A stretch of DNA of 64,000 bases from the NCBI GenBank assembly GCA_963726255.1, contig CAVSBL010000002.1, positions 512,001 through 576,000 of the forward strand. Direction: 5' to 3'. The notes under the pieces are model-generated. The model worked only from the letters and a program-made list of their open reading frames with translations. It did not search any database and was not told the DNA's origin. The translations under genes were made by a program, and so were the position numbers. Shown here piece by piece: positions 43,888-52,063 of the stretch. How positions within the stretch are numbered: the stretch's first letter is position 1; the number at the start of each line of letters is the position of its first letter. The stretch comes from Candidatus Bathyarchaeota archaeon. Lineage in GTDB: Archaea > Thermoproteota > Bathyarchaeia > 40CM-2-53-6.

Positions 43888-44280
43888 ATGCCAAAATCGT
43901 TCTACGTTAAGTTCGAAGTCCCAAAGGAATTGGCCGATAAAGCACTCCAAGTTGTGCAAGTGGCCAAGGATTCTGGAAAAGTCAGAAAAGGAACCAATGA
44001 AAGTACCAAGGCCATTGAACGCGCCGTTGCAAAGCTAGTCCTGATAGCGGAGGATGTTGACCCCCCTCAAGTCGTTGCGCACTTACCGATATTATGCGAT
44101 GAAAGGAAGATACCATTCCTCTTTGTGCCAAGTAAACTTGACTTAGGTCGAGCTGCTGGTATTGACGTTGGCTGTGCCGCGGTTTCAGTTCTCGATGGCG
44201 GTGAAGGTTCTAAGGCTCTGAAGGAAGTGGCAGACGCAACCCAGCAAATCAGAAAGGGCGGAGCCAAAGGTCAGGCATGA
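43888..44280 (+). CDS. rpl7ae: 50S ribosomal protein L7Ae
   Basis: [25 protein letters not shown]. Confidence 0.97.
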
Positions 44281-47057: not shown

Positions 47058-47267
47058 CTTTTGCCCATAGCATGGGTTTAGGTGTTCCATCTTAGTTATG
47101 GCTGAGGGATTCGTGGGCCACTATTGTCGGACGTTTTGCCGTACGTTTTGCATGTGACAAGACCGGGCTGCAGCGACTTCTGGCGTTTGAGGTCTTGTTA
47201 GACCACAGAAAACATCGCTGTGCTTTTTACACCCGGCAGGTTAGGTTGCTCAGGCGTCGCGTTCGCA

Positions 47268-50135
47268 ATGGTCCTTCAACAGTCAAACGTCTTCGATGAA
47301 CTCGCAAAACCCATTCGCGATGCCATTGTAGATCGGGGCTTCACTTCTCCCACAGACCCTCAGCTAAGAGCGATTCCAGAGATCTTAGCCGGCAAGAATG
47401 TTCTGCTGATCTCGCCAACCGCTTCAGGAAAAACAGAGGCAGCGGTCCTACCTGTTCTGAGTAGGTACATTACAGATCGTGGGGAAGATCGAGGAATCAA
47501 GATACTCTACATTACCCCTCTACGGGCATTGAACCGTGACATGCTGGAACGATTCGAATGGTGGGGGAAGAAACTCGATCTGAGGATTGCGGTTCGGCAT
47601 GGGGATACGGAAGTCAAGGAAAGAACATTCCAAGCAAAGAACCCTCCAGACATGCTGATCATAACACCTGAAACGCTCCAAGCGATCTTGACCGGGCGTG
47701 TCATGAAACGCCATTTGCAAGCGGTGAACTTCGTAATAGTTGATGAGGTTCATGAGTTAGCTGAGGACAAGCGAGGAAGTCAACTCGCCCTAGCGTTAGA
47801 GCGGCTACGATGGGCAGCTATGCATGATTTTCAGGTAATCGGCCTTTCGGCCACTATAGGAACTCCTGAGAAAGTTGCTCGATTTCTGGTCGGAGTTGGC
47901 AGAGAAGTTACTATTGTCCATGTTCCAGTCGGGAGAGAGATTCACCTCGATATTACCTGTCCAAAACCTGAGGGAAGGGACATGGTGTTGGCTTCTCGAC
48001 TGTATACCCACCCTGATGTCGCGGCACGCTTGAGGCTCATGAGAGAACTGATAGAGTCTCATCGGTCCGTTATCCTCTTCACTAACACGAGGTCAATTGC
48101 GGAGATTCTTACTAGCCGAATGAAAGTCTGGGACGTTGACTTCCCCGTCTCAATTCACCACGGTTCACTTGCAAAACCGTCCCGAATTAGTGCTGAGAGG
48201 GGGCTGAAGGACGGCCAGCTCCGAGGGCTCGTCGCCACGTCATCTTTGGAGCTTGGGATTGATGTCGGTAGTGTCGACTTCGTTATTCAATACATGAGCC
48301 CGCGCCAAGTCACTAGGCTGATCCAGCGTGTGGGTAGGAGCGGTCATAGGATTGGGAGGATCGCGGACGGAATAATTGTTGCCTCAGACTCAGATGACAC
48401 GTTGGAAGCGATGGTGATCGCTCGCCGTGCTCTGGAGGAACGCCTTGAACCAGTTACAATTCCATACAAACCATTGGATGTCCTAGCCCATCAGTTAGTA
48501 GGCCTGCTGATACAGAAAGGAAGATGGTATGTCAACGAGGTTATGGACATTTTCACAAAGGCCTCCCCTTACGAACACTTAACGGAGGAAGACCTGATTG
48601 GCGTAATCAATTACATGCACTCCCGATTTCCAAGGCTGGCCTGGTATTCGGCGCAGGACAATGTAATACTAAGGCCGCGAAGGCTGAACGCGCTTTTCAC
48701 ATACTATTTTGGCAAGCTTTCCATGATACCCGACGAAAAACAGTACCTGATTATCGACCAGGGAAACGATGAAGCTGTCGGGGTTCTCGACGAAGCATTC
48801 GTGGCCGAGTACGGCGAGCCGGGACGGAAATTCATCGTCCGCGGTTCGCCTTGGAGAATGATGAGCATACGTGGAGACAAAATTTACGTCAAAGCCATTC
48901 GAGACCCGACCGGCTCAATTCCAAGTTGGGTGGGTGAAGAGATCCCTGTCCCATTTGAGATAGGCCAAGAAGTCGGCGCGACAAGACGGCGAGTAGAAGA
49001 AGGCGTTCAGGCGGGCAGGAGCGGTTCCGAGCTAGTTCAGGAGCTTTGTAGGGATTATCCGGCAGATTCTGAAACGGTAGAACGTTCATTGAGCGAAACG
49101 TTCGAACAAATCTCGCTAGGCTTGAAGGTCCCCACGGATATGCGGGTGGTTCTGGAGGACTGGGAAGACTTTGTCATAATCAACGCTCATTTCGGACTGT
49201 TGGTTAACAGGACCCTCGCTCGCTTGGTCGGGCATGTCCTGTCAGAGGAAATTGGCACCACGATAGGTGTCCAGCAGGACGCATACCGAATCGTTGTTCA
49301 AACCTCTGGGTCGGCTAACGCGTTGAAAGTTGCTGAGACGCTTCGCCGACTTGCAAGGATGGACGTTCAGACACTTGTCGTTGACGCCTCGAAGAAGACT
49401 GGCTTGTTCAAGCGCAGGCTAGTGCACGTAGCAAAGAGGTTTGGTGCCATTACCAAATGGGTAGAGTTTGGTAGCGTCAATCTCCGCCAAGTCATGAAGA
49501 GCTTCGAGGGGACGGTAATCATGGAGGAGGCTTTCAAGGAGACTATGGAGAAGGATTTGGATGTCCCGAACACTCTCCGGGTGCTGCAGAAATTCGGCAA
49601 TGAAATCGAGCTTTCAGTGGCCTCTCGAACACGAGAGGCAAGTCCAATTGCCAGGATAGGAATTGAGCGCATAAGCCGAAAAACGGACCTGATTCCACCT
49701 GAGAAAATGAAGCGAATTCTCGTTGAGTCGGCAAGGGTAAGGATACTCAATGAATCGAGAACTCTGGCATGTCCAGCCTGTCTGAGTTACGCCAAAATTC
49801 TAATGGTCAAAGATATGCCCACCGACTTCTCTTGCCCGAAATGTGGGACGGGTAAACTTGGAATCACCAGCGAACTCCCCGAACTTGTCGAGAAGATTGG
49901 ACGAAAGAGAGGACGCAACATGTCGGAACGGGAGGAAAGAGTTCGCGAGGATCTCAAAGCCAGCGCAGCACTACTCCAGAAATATGGCAAGGTGGCGGCA
50001 TATGTGCTCGCTGGAAGGAGGATAGGGCCTGGAGAAGCGAAGGTTGTCCTTAGGCGGACACATCGTGTGTCGGAGCGTCTCTATGAATCTATCATGGATG
50101 CTGAAAGGCGGGTTCTTCGCCGCAGATTTTGGTGA
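47268..50135 (+). CDS. lhr: Lhr-family SF2 helicase with C-terminal Zn finger
   Basis: PTASGKT, PLRALNRD, RHGDT, DEVHE, SAT, QRVGRSGH, IPSWVGE, CPAC/CPKC. Confidence 0.93.
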   Translation: MVLQQSNVFDELAKPIRDAIVDRGFTSPTDPQLRAIPEILAGKNVLLISPTASGKTEAAVLPVLSRYITDRGEDRGIKILYITPLRALNRDMLERFEWWGKKLDLRIAVRHGDTEVKERTFQAKNPPDMLIITPETLQAILTGRVMKRHLQAVNFVIVDEVHELAEDKRGSQLALALERLRWAAMHDFQVIGLSATIGTPEKVARFLVGVGREVTIVHVPVGREIHLDITCPKPEGRDMVLASRLYTHPDVAARLRLMRELIESHRSVILFTNTRSIAEILTSRMKVWDVDFPVSIHHGSLAKPSRISAERGLKDGQLRGLVATSSLELGIDVGSVDFVIQYMSPRQVTRLIQRVGRSGHRIGRIADGIIVASDSDDTLEAMVIARRALEERLEPVTIPYKPLDVLAHQLVGLLIQKGRWYVNEVMDIFTKASPYEHLTEEDLIGVINYMHSRFPRLAWYSAQDNVILRPRRLNALFTYYFGKLSMIPDEKQYLIIDQGNDEAVGVLDEAFVAEYGEPGRKFIVRGSPWRMMSIRGDKIYVKAIRDPTGSIPSWVGEEIPVPFEIGQEVGATRRRVEEGVQAGRSGSELVQELCRDYPADSETVERSLSETFEQISLGLKVPTDMRVVLEDWEDFVIINAHFGLLVNRTLARLVGHVLSEEIGTTIGVQQDAYRIVVQTSGSANALKVAETLRRLARMDVQTLVVDASKKTGLFKRRLVHVAKRFGAITKWVEFGSVNLRQVMKSFEGTVIMEEAFKETMEKDLDVPNTLRVLQKFGNEIELSVASRTREASPIARIGIERISRKTDLIPPEKMKRILVESARVRILNESRTLACPACLSYAKILMVKDMPTDFSCPKCGTGKLGITSELPELVEKIGRKRGRNMSEREERVREDLKASAALLQKYGKVAAYVLAGRRIGPGEAKVVLRRTHRVSERLYESIMDAERRVLRRRFW

Positions 50136-50140
50136 CTGAA

Positions 50141-50290
50141 AGTGGTGCGTTGGTGTACCTCCGCAAGGACGATAAGCCGGAGCGGTCAAAGGTGTTTGGG
50201 CAATGACGAAAGCTGGTATTGGAGTAACCTGTGATCGAAGAAACCAGACCGGAGCCCGCAACCCTTAGCTAGAGAGAGAACGGCACCGCT
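50141..50290 (+). ncRNA. Candidate composite K-turn/C/D guide RNA
   Basis: Closing stem AGTGGTGCGTT/AAC(G)GCACCGCT; inner GGGC-ATGACGA...CGGA-GCCC module with two elements antisense to 16S helix 18. Confidence 0.6.
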
Positions 50291-50350
50291 ACCTGCCGCG
50301 AACAATTTTCAAGTCTAAGAACATTTCTTCCGCGCACGGCGTGTGGGAGC

Positions 50351-50361
50351 TTTTATATAAA
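50351..50361 (+). promoter_or_regulatory. TATA box candidate for the peptide ABC operon
   Basis: TTTTATATAAA about 50 nt upstream of ATG 50411. Confidence 0.6.
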
Positions 50362-50410
50362 CAAACGACGCCTGTCTGTTCCACGGAAATTTTGGAGGAA
50401 AATAACGTAA

Positions 50411-52063
50411 ATGTCAGCTACATCGAAACGAAACACAACATACATCGCGGCAGCAGTTCTAATCGTAATCATACTTGCCGGAGTAGGCTACTACTTCTAC
50501 TCATCACCGAGCGCTCCCACCATGACTACTCAATCGATGCCCACTTACAAGGACACTATCGTGATAGGCACAACCGACACAGTCCAGACCACACTTGACC
50601 CGGCGGACGCATACGACTACTTCGCACAAAGCGTAATCATGACCAACATAGCCAACGGGCTCGTCGAATATAGACCGGGAACAACAGAATTTGTGCCAGC
50701 GTTGGCGACAGATTGGAGCGTAAGCCCAGATGGCCTCACGTGGACATTCAACCTGCGGCAGGGCGTAAAATTTGCGGACGGAACACCATTCGATGCAAAC
50801 GTCATGAAGTATACCATGGATAGAGAGTTTGCAATAGACGAACCATCAGGTCCATTCGCGGGAGTCGGTCTTGACACACTAATCAACAAAACTATTGTGA
50901 CAAGCCAATACCAAGTTCAATTCGTTCTTAACGAGCCCTTCTCAGCGTTCTTGGCGATGGTCGCCTTCCAAGCCATGTGGCCAGTCAACCCGAATGTGGC
51001 TCCTATGCATTCTATTGTGAACTACACTGGAGATGTGAAAACAGAAGTCAACACAAACATCGGAGCGTACATGGTGACCGCTTGGCAAAGAACAGGCGGC
51101 AAGGATGTTGAGATCGATCTACAGGCAAATCCAAACTATTGGAACGCGTCAGGTGGTAATCCCAAGACAAAGAACATAATTTTCAAGATCTACTCCGACT
51201 CAACATCACTCAACCTGGCTATGCAGAGTGGTGCGATCGATATCGCGTACAGACAGCTCTCCCCAACTGACAATCAGGCGTACCAGACAAACGCGAACTT
51301 CAAGTTCTGGGAAGGTCCAGGCACATTCATACAATATCTTTGTTTCAACTTGAAATCACCGCCGTTCGACAACGTTGCGGTGAGGCAAGCAGTCGCGGCG
51401 GGTATTGACAGGTCCCTCATAACTAACACGGTCTTTCTAGGACAGATGGTCCCGTTGTACAGCATGATACCTGCTGGAATGTCCTATCATGAGGATGCGT
51501 TCAAGACTTACGGCGACGCGAACGTAGCCCAAGCTACGTCGTTGCTGCAAAGCGCAGGTTACAGTGCCTCAAACCCATTGAAGTTCACTTTGACATACCC
51601 CACTGGGCACTACTCGTCGACAGACGGGATTTCTTCTGCAATTAAGCAGGCGCTCGAAAAGACTGGGATGGTACAGGTTACACTCGCCAGTGAACCCTGG
51701 GCAAACTACAAGGCAAGTACGCAGTCGGATCAACTTCAGGCGTATATTTACGGTTGGTACCCTGACTTTTTGGATCCGTTCGATTACACGCAACCATTTC
51801 TGCCAGCAGACGGCCGCGGTTTCCTGAACACGCACTACGTCAGCCCCGACATGACAGCACTGATTAAGACAGTGGGTTCATCCACTGACACGAGTGTGCT
51901 GGCTACGACGTACACGAGCATCCAGGAGTTGACCGCCAAAGACGCGCCAGTAGTGCCTCTCTTTCAAGGCAAAAGCACTGCTGTAAGCAATCTCAAGGTT
52001 GGCGGAATCGTACTGGACGCCACAATCTGGTTCAGAGCCTACTTGTTGTGGGAAACGACATAG
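50411..52063 (+). CDS. Peptide/nickel ABC transporter substrate-binding protein (family 5)
   Basis: N-terminal TM helix, LDPA, PALATDW, LRQGVKFADGTPF, NPNYW. Confidence 0.93.
   Translation: MSATSKRNTTYIAAAVLIVIILAGVGYYFYSSPSAPTMTTQSMPTYKDTIVIGTTDTVQTTLDPADAYDYFAQSVIMTNIANGLVEYRPGTTEFVPALATDWSVSPDGLTWTFNLRQGVKFADGTPFDANVMKYTMDREFAIDEPSGPFAGVGLDTLINKTIVTSQYQVQFVLNEPFSAFLAMVAFQAMWPVNPNVAPMHSIVNYTGDVKTEVNTNIGAYMVTAWQRTGGKDVEIDLQANPNYWNASGGNPKTKNIIFKIYSDSTSLNLAMQSGAIDIAYRQLSPTDNQAYQTNANFKFWEGPGTFIQYLCFNLKSPPFDNVAVRQAVAAGIDRSLITNTVFLGQMVPLYSMIPAGMSYHEDAFKTYGDANVAQATSLLQSAGYSASNPLKFTLTYPTGHYSSTDGISSAIKQALEKTGMVQVTLASEPWANYKASTQSDQLQAYIYGWYPDFLDPFDYTQPFLPADGRGFLNTHYVSPDMTALIKTVGSSTDTSVLATTYTSIQELTAKDAPVVPLFQGKSTAVSNLKVGGIVLDATIWFRAYLLWETT

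Follow-up and report, generated by a model that had tools for sequence, protein, structure and literature searches.

Positions 50198–50257 on the plus strand of the window, the whole 64,000-nucleotide stretch of a Bathyarchaeia genome analyzed here (G000:C2:512001–576000), very probably encode an archaeal box C/D small RNA (sRNA) of approximately 60 nt with dual guides to helix 18 of 16S rRNA. The initial annotation had proposed such a guide embedded in a larger structured RNA. Every string that it quoted is present where it placed it, and the guide RNA itself is supported by its anatomy, conservation and covariation. The locus lies inside a 275-nt gap between two plus-strand genes, an Lhr-type helicase gene upstream (47220–50135; Pfam domains DEAD, Helicase_C, WH_Lhr and DEAD_assoc) and a family-5 solute-binding protein gene downstream (50411–52063), and it is overlapped by a minus-strand open reading frame of 96 amino acids (49971–50261). 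ARAGORN found no tRNA in the whole window, and the sRNA thus belongs neither to a tRNA nor to a tRNA intron.

The whole layout can be read straight from the sequence of the window. A terminal stem, formed by a GGGC 5′ arm (50198–50201) and a GCCC 3′ arm (50254–50257) that is supported by covariation, closes the RNA and would define its mature ends. The C box, AUGACGA (50203–50209), lies near the 5′ end and the D box, CGGA (50250–50253), assigned from the box tallies in relatives, lies near the 3′ end, the arrangement that a terminal K-turn requires. The consensus boxes of archaeal C/D RNAs are RUGAUGA for C and CUGA for D. Between the C and D boxes, the D′ guide (spacer AAGCUGGUAUUG, 50210–50221, with its core AGCTGGTATT at 50211–50220) is followed by a variant D′ box, GAGU (50222–50225), placed by box tallies and by covariation with the C′ box. 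A loop of 5 nt leads to a variant C′ box, GUGAUCG (50231–50237), recognized from box tallies, and to the D guide (spacer AAGAAACCAGAC, 50238–50249), which contains ACCAGAC at 50243–50249. Both guide spacers measure 12 nt and were assigned by complementarity to the genome's own 16S rRNA. Measured from the first nucleotide of the C box to the last of the D box, members of the sRNA family most often span 49–51 nt. The GAGU D′ box of the window lacks the A of one sheared G·A pair, and this form is common to 10 distinct sequences.

We scanned both 12-nt spacers against the rRNA of the same genome, which carries a single 16S gene (C2:91340–92887) and a 23S gene (C2:93067–96821). The D′ guide pairs with 16S positions 496–506 through 10 Watson-Crick pairs and one G·U pair, 11 contiguous pairs in all. 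This is its top match in 16S and 23S, and the runner-up rRNA match of the D′ spacer comprises 8 + 2 pairs in a run broken by a gap. The D guide pairs with 16S positions 475–484, again its top match in 16S and 23S, through seven contiguous pairs, an A·G mismatch at guide position 8 and two further pairs, in agreement with the earlier estimate that the second guide pairs over only about 7 nt. The 16S reads AATACCAGCT at 497–506, exactly the 530-loop sequence that had been guessed for archaeal 16S rRNA, and GTCTGGT at 475–481. Positions 496–506 form the 3′ strand of helix 18 and positions 475–484 its 5′ strand. The proposal that the guides address both strands of this helix is thus borne out by pairing with the genome's own 16S rRNA, since both top rRNA complements lie there. 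Because they target both strands of one helix, the guides are partly complementary to each other, which accounts for the CUGGU/ACCAG stem that appears in single-sequence folds. Five nucleotides upstream of the D′ box, position 50217 faces 16S A500 as a Watson-Crick U–A pair, and position 50245, five upstream of the D box, faces G479 as a Watson-Crick C–G pair. A500 and G479 are therefore the predicted methylation sites of the D′ and D guides, respectively. The 23S match itself spans 3755 nt for 2987 model positions, so that this gene probably holds insertions or introns.

The sRNA is conserved well beyond its closest relatives. A BLAST search (query 50100–50340, E ≤ 0.001) matched it in 27 of 40 related genomes, or 28 of 41 with the genome of the window, spanning eight of the 13 genera, with the window's own genome counted, and seven of the 10 families of the order. 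Within the genus, 18 of 22 genomes had a match; the 13 of 40 relatives in which this search gave no match include some incomplete genomes. Outside the closest relatives, only query positions 97–162 match, the stretch that holds the C/D module. Both guide cores, AGCTGGTATT and AACCAG, are kept in all 27 of the sequences re-extracted from relatives, in which the loop and the flanks vary, and the C box conforms to ATGA-N-GA in 27 of 27 BLAST-derived sequences. One BLAST match (L026, from genome G025) was not found again by blastn-short and was left out of the alignments.

We extended this survey with a pattern scan that took one genome per species and held the boxes and guide cores fixed, so that only the unconstrained columns count as evidence. 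The scan returned 104 stretches, and among the 80 listed, 31 carry Bathyarchaeia or Bathyarchaeota titles, 44 other archaeal titles and five bacterial titles. Among the matches listed, the other archaeal titles mostly belong to Thermoprotei orders. They include Desulfurococcales, Acidilobaceae, Pyrodictiaceae, Sulfolobaceae/Saccharolobus, Caldisphaera, Thermogladius, Ignisphaera and Hestiella, as well as one Methanomethylicota and one Nitrososphaerota. Three stretches with bacterial titles (L098, L099 and L102) have no terminal stem; we judged them chance matches and dropped them before counting. The two remaining stretches with bacterial titles (L100 and L117, from Acidiferrales and Methylomirabilota metagenome-assembled genomes (MAGs)) hold a complete Bathyarchaeia-type sRNA, identical to that of the genus relatives L012 and L014, and their contigs or bins are probably archaeal and mislabelled.

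To the conservation in 27 of 40 relatives is added covariation, and together they place the C/D module far beyond chance. In an alignment of 88 distinct sequences (A1), we scored a structure made of the terminal stem and of two Watson-Crick pairs each of the C/D K-turn and the C′/D′ motif. In this alignment, 85.5% of the cells are paired, compared to 66.1% in shuffles that ignore relatedness, none of 500 of which reached as high a value, and sliding the partners along leaves only 25.9–47.0% paired. The terminal stem is 92.3% paired over the 88 sequences, and all four of its pairs have changed on both sides. The comparison with relatives that had been suggested as a check therefore shows both a conserved C/D module and compensatory changes within it.

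D′ position 1 and its partner, C′ position 6, read G–C in 41 sequences, C–G in 40, U–A in 5 and A–U in 2, and are unpaired in none of the 88. The window carries G–C and the Thermoprotei C–G, and the closing pair of the Bathyarchaeia C′/D′ motif is accordingly, as aligned, inverted relative to that of Thermoprotei. This covariation fixes the D′ box at its canonical place, 50222–50225, and marks the C′/D′ motif as a maintained variant rather than as a decayed one. The description of the C′/D′ boxes as degenerate consequently holds in that they are of a variant form, GAGU/GUGAUCG, and fails in that they covary, are never unpaired and are less degenerate than thought. In the box tallies, the D′ box is GAGA in most Bathyarchaeia and CUGA in Thermoprotei, with GA at D′ positions 3–4 kept in 28 of 45 distinct Bathyarchaeia-type sequences, and the C′ box is GTGATCG in 25 of these 45, compared to the canonical.TGA.GA in 25 of the 41 other sequences.

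The D box of relatives is CUGA, CAGA, CCGA or CGGA, and C box position 5 (window position 50207) and D box position 2 (50251), which correspond to A1 columns 12 and 70, form a standard pair in 50 of the 88 sequences. In the canonical K-turn, these two positions are U·U. In a somewhat different set of 86 distinct sequences, this combination occurs in only eight, and the AUGACGA and CGGA boxes of the window place a C–G pair there. Watson-Crick pairs were found in 39 of the 86 (G–C 13, A–U 12, U–A 10 and C–G 4) versus approximately 22 expected, a value that was reached by one of 2000 shuffles that leave relatedness uncontrolled.

The guides and their targets recall sRNAs that have already been described. 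Dennis et al. 2015 (BMC Genomics 16:632, PMC4644070) present a helix-18 dual-guide family comprising Sac sR115, Pca sR28, Tte sR114 and Iho sR21. In helix 18, the D′ guides of this family target 16S A512 (E. coli A535) for methylation and the D guides of three members address G491, the Iho D guide being weakened by G·U pairs. For double guides, the authors relax the requirement of nine pairs and put forward a role as chaperones. Compared with these standards, the D′ guide of the window reaches the threshold of about nine pairs and the D guide only the relaxed one for double guides. The likeness extends to the strands targeted, to the distance of 21 nt that separates A500 from G479 as it does A512 from G491, to the 12-nt spacers, to the double-guide logic and to the proposed chaperone role. 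From this distance and the E. coli positions given there, A500 would be equivalent to E. coli A535. In MAGs whose titles name Saccharolobus, Sulfolobaceae, Desulfurococcales and others, the scan found orthologs that carry the same guides and align over their full length. The identical target logic and the Sulfolobaceae/Saccharolobus orthologs argue that the window sRNA matches this helix-18 family. It differs in its GUGAUCG/GAGU C′/D′ motif with the inverted closing pair, in the fixed A·G mismatch of its D guide and in its host, a Bathyarchaeia archaeon of sediment, soil and wetland metagenomes, whereas the published members come from cultured hyperthermophiles.

Rfam 15 has no family for this sRNA. 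At gathering thresholds, it gave no match in the whole window, and the search of the locus that had been suggested yielded, at E ≤ 10, a single match, to sR44 (RF01129), which scored 11.7 bits where the gathering score is 45. With six orthologous loci, matches to sR1 (RF01152) stayed below threshold and aligned the boxes alone, and the Thermogladius ortholog reached 25.3 bits against a gathering score of 45 with its guides unaligned. The sRNA is like sR44 and sR1 in box layout and in length (55–57 positions), but only the boxes align.

Bathyarchaeia and Thermoprotei also differ in the D guide. The Thermoprotei layout consists of the C box, 12 nt, CUGA (24 of 41 distinct sequences),.UGA.GA (25 of 41), 12 nt and C-N-GA, and the twelve commonest forms of its D spacer, which account for 35 of 41 sequences, are all GACACCAG, GGCACCAG or GAUACCAG. 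We sought the 16S rRNA in ten genomes from the pattern scan and obtained a match in four of the five of a first set and in none of the five of a second, so that guide/16S covariation outside the order is read from four genomes. In these four, the Thermoprotei D guides pair through the stretch that is mismatched in Bathyarchaeia, which indicates that the 5′ strand of helix 18 is indeed what the D guide targets. By this comparison of aligned spacers, the Bathyarchaeia D guide is a derived form. Its spacer reads GAAACCAG in 40 of 45 distinct Bathyarchaeia-type sequences, and the mismatch to 16S G482 is therefore conserved and not drifting. A form with a one-base insertion accounts for four of the 45 sequences. 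A Bathyarchaeia subgroup (L028, L029, L097 and L106) carries a 13-nt D spacer, GACAACCAG, that has one base more than the Thermoprotei GACACCAG. This spacer could pair with G482 if one A bulges out, and it may be intermediate between the Thermoprotei form and the common Bathyarchaeia form.

Within the order, the evidence for the D arm is mixed, and the Thermoprotei orthologs are the stronger argument. Apart from position 476, helix 18 does not vary among the 18 genomes with a 16S sequence, that of the window counted. Position 476 is U in 14 genomes, A in two and C in two and faces D guide position 2. The guide carries a compensating G in one genome with C476 (G039) and keeps A, uncompensated, in the other (G036) and in the two with A476 (G030 and G038). 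The base at guide position 1, C or U, is paired to G475 in the nine genus genomes, own included, with both 16S and sRNA data, and is unpaired with 475 in the three more distant genomes checked (G031, G033 and G034).

These features bear on whether the sRNA guides methylation at all. The C/D ribonucleoprotein (RNP) of Bathyarchaeia might mainly or only chaperone helix 18, with the D arm, and perhaps the D′ arm, having no methylation role, a reading that draws on the conserved mismatch to G482 at a place where the Thermoprotei spacers differ, on the sheared-pair A missing from the D′ box of the window and on the chaperone roles argued for double guides by Dennis et al. 2015 (PMC4644070). We consider it unlikely. 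Both guides form a Watson-Crick pair at their methylation position, the D′ duplex runs for 11 contiguous pairs at the canonical 12-nt spacing, the C′/D′ pairing is upheld by covariation and the genome encodes fibrillarin. A related proposal, in which Bathyarchaeia have remodelled an ancient helix-18 guide, with an inverted C′/D′ closing pair and a fixed A·G mismatch to G482, so that its D arm acts as a methylation-independent clamp on the 5′ strand during 30S assembly, likewise seems doubtful to us; if true, it would provide a natural case of a C/D guide arm kept purely as an rRNA chaperone.

We prefer the reading of a dual methylation guide, for which the genome encodes the protein partners. 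An L7Ae-family gene lies on the plus strand at 43939–44205 of the window (G000:C2:555939–556205; PF01248, 95.1 bits; open frame of 186 amino acids), approximately 6 kb upstream of the sRNA, and the genes for fibrillarin (PF01269, 324.9 bits) and Nop5 (PF01798, 244.2 bits) are adjacent at C2:427908–429321. The Pfam scores of L7Ae, Nop5 and fibrillarin are all above the cut-offs. A second, shorter L7Ae-family member is found at C2:1409318–1409593. In the mechanism that we propose, the sRNA would most likely be transcribed from a BRE/TATA promoter of its own at 50161–50177. L7Ae would bind the terminal K-turn, made of the AUGACGA C box and the CGGA D box and closed by GGGC/GCCC, and would also bind the internal C′/D′ motif GUGAUCG/GAGU, and Nop5 and fibrillarin would complete the RNP. 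On the 3′ strand of helix 18 (16S 496–506), the D′ guide would then put A500 at the methylation position, as the D guide would G479 on the 5′ strand (475–484, with one A·G mismatch). With both guides bound, the two strands of helix 18 would be held apart, which makes a folding-chaperone role during 30S assembly plausible.

Several features point to a promoter immediately upstream. The conserved half of the sequence upstream of the sRNA is the 5′ half of a hairpin that had been drawn there, CCnCAAnnACGATAAG. In all 19 genus sequences, GATAA begins 27–28 nt before the 5′ end of the sRNA. Distant relatives have an A/T-rich TATAAGC, TTTAAGC or AATAAAA at a similar place, and the tRNA genes of this genome are preceded by motifs resembling GCAAAC-TTTAAGC at approximately −35 to −25. 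We interpret the conserved 5′ half, its fixed spacing of 27–28 nt and the likeness to the tRNA motifs as a probable BRE/TATA promoter of the sRNA, located on the plus strand at 50161–50177 and composed of CCGCAAGGAC and GATAAGC. According to Lui et al. 2018 (PMC6009581), most C/D sRNAs of archaea are transcribed independently. Nearly every tRNA gene of this genome (G000 C2) appears to bear an intron: run without its intron option, ARAGORN returned seven genes, five of which have odd anticodon loops, and run with the option it returned 35, among which only two clean genes are intronless.

The position of the sRNA behind the helicase gene also allows for its release from a longer transcript. The lhr stop codon lies approximately 60 nt upstream on the same strand, and this arrangement recurs, by eye from the alignment, in most genus sequences; co-transcription of C/D sRNAs with protein genes has been reported for Sulfolobus and Pyrococcus, as cited by Lui et al. 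2018 (PMC6009581). That the sRNA has no promoter and is cut from the 3′ untranslated tail of the lhr mRNA, with CCnCAAnnACGATAAG serving otherwise, for example in mRNA 3′-end formation, nevertheless strikes us as quite unlikely. Beyond the genus, where the sequence upstream of the sRNA is different, relatives still have an A/T-rich, TATA-like motif in a similar position; the motif resembles those upstream of the tRNA genes, and its distance from the sRNA is fixed in 19 of 19 sequences. A promoter of its own and processing from the lhr mRNA do not exclude each other.

Sequencing runs that contain the locus come from sediment, peat, wetland and soil metagenomes. The search returned 20 runs, four of them RNA libraries with small shares. 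The contigs of these four (X15, X16, X17 and X20) cover only the stretch from position 50383 onward, that is, the solute-binding protein gene, and are therefore uninformative either way on a 60-nt non-polyadenylated RNA. In two runs, the Nanopore metatranscriptome contigs start at 50383 and 50389, after loose letters that we take to resemble a strand-switching adaptor. These starts lie approximately 27 nt past the center of an A/T-rich, TATA-like run (50351–50360) and probably correspond to the transcription start of the solute-binding protein gene, which has its ATG at 50411 and GGAGGA at 50394–50399 and is well represented in wetland and soil RNA libraries.

The larger RNA proposed in the initial annotation is a single structured, L7Ae-binding RNA of approximately 150 nt (50141–50290) in which an outer stem encloses a K-turn hairpin (50161–50185) and the C/D guide, a reading that we find highly improbable. 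The hairpin of the window, CCGC-AAG-GACG-AUAAGC-CGGA-GCGG, can be drawn as a K-turn with tandem G·A pairs, the outer arms (50141–50151 and 50279–50290) can form ten pairs, including one G·U, with a 1-nt bulge, and the closest relative (L003, 92% identical) keeps these arms. Nonetheless, the 165-nt fold has a z-score of +1.04, with 172 of 200 shuffles folding at least as well, and the fold of the opposite strand over the same 165 nt is also no better than shuffles (z +1.27). The outer duplex, at −17.4 kcal/mol, is matched by 89 of 200 shuffles, and of the 18 other genus sequences, 17 have flanks whose pairing does not exceed that of shuffles, the exception being L012 (2 of 200). The outer stem is thus at chance level in 18 of 19 genus sequences, the window's included, and two relatives (L004 and L005) keep the 5′ arm and have no complementary 3′ arm.

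The idea that the inner hairpin is a second K-turn fares no better. All six of its Watson-Crick pairs are kept in one of 19 genus sequences, that of the window itself, and the tandem G·A pairs in five of 19, and both hairpin substitutions in L003 break pairs, none compensating. Conservation is confined to the 5′ half, where the ACGATAA positions are kept in 15–17 of 17 distinct sequences compared to 6–13 of 17 for positions in the 3′ half. With transcription starting at the predicted site, approximately 27 nt downstream of GATAAG, the hairpin would not be part of the RNA. L7Ae-bound K-turns are reported to occur in archaeal mRNAs (Daume et al. 2017, mBio, PMC5539422). The window hairpin resembles them in that it can be drawn as a K-turn, but its structure is not conserved and it sits where the promoter of the sRNA is expected. 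A promoter together with chance pairing best accounts for the 150-nt RNA and the second K-turn that had been proposed.

For Bathyarchaeia, the window adds an unannotated but ordinary guide RNA gene and no new kind of RNA, as the sRNA appears to belong to a family already in print. Our literature search returned no publication naming such sRNAs in this class. Reported from four hyperthermophilic members of the Crenarchaeota, the helix-18 dual-guide sRNA appears to reach through Bathyarchaeia and into many lineages of Thermoprotei, and so to rank among the more broadly conserved C/D sRNAs of archaea. When C/D sRNAs are annotated in uncultured Thermoproteota, the family may be a useful seed, and it may offer a natural series of K-turn variants.
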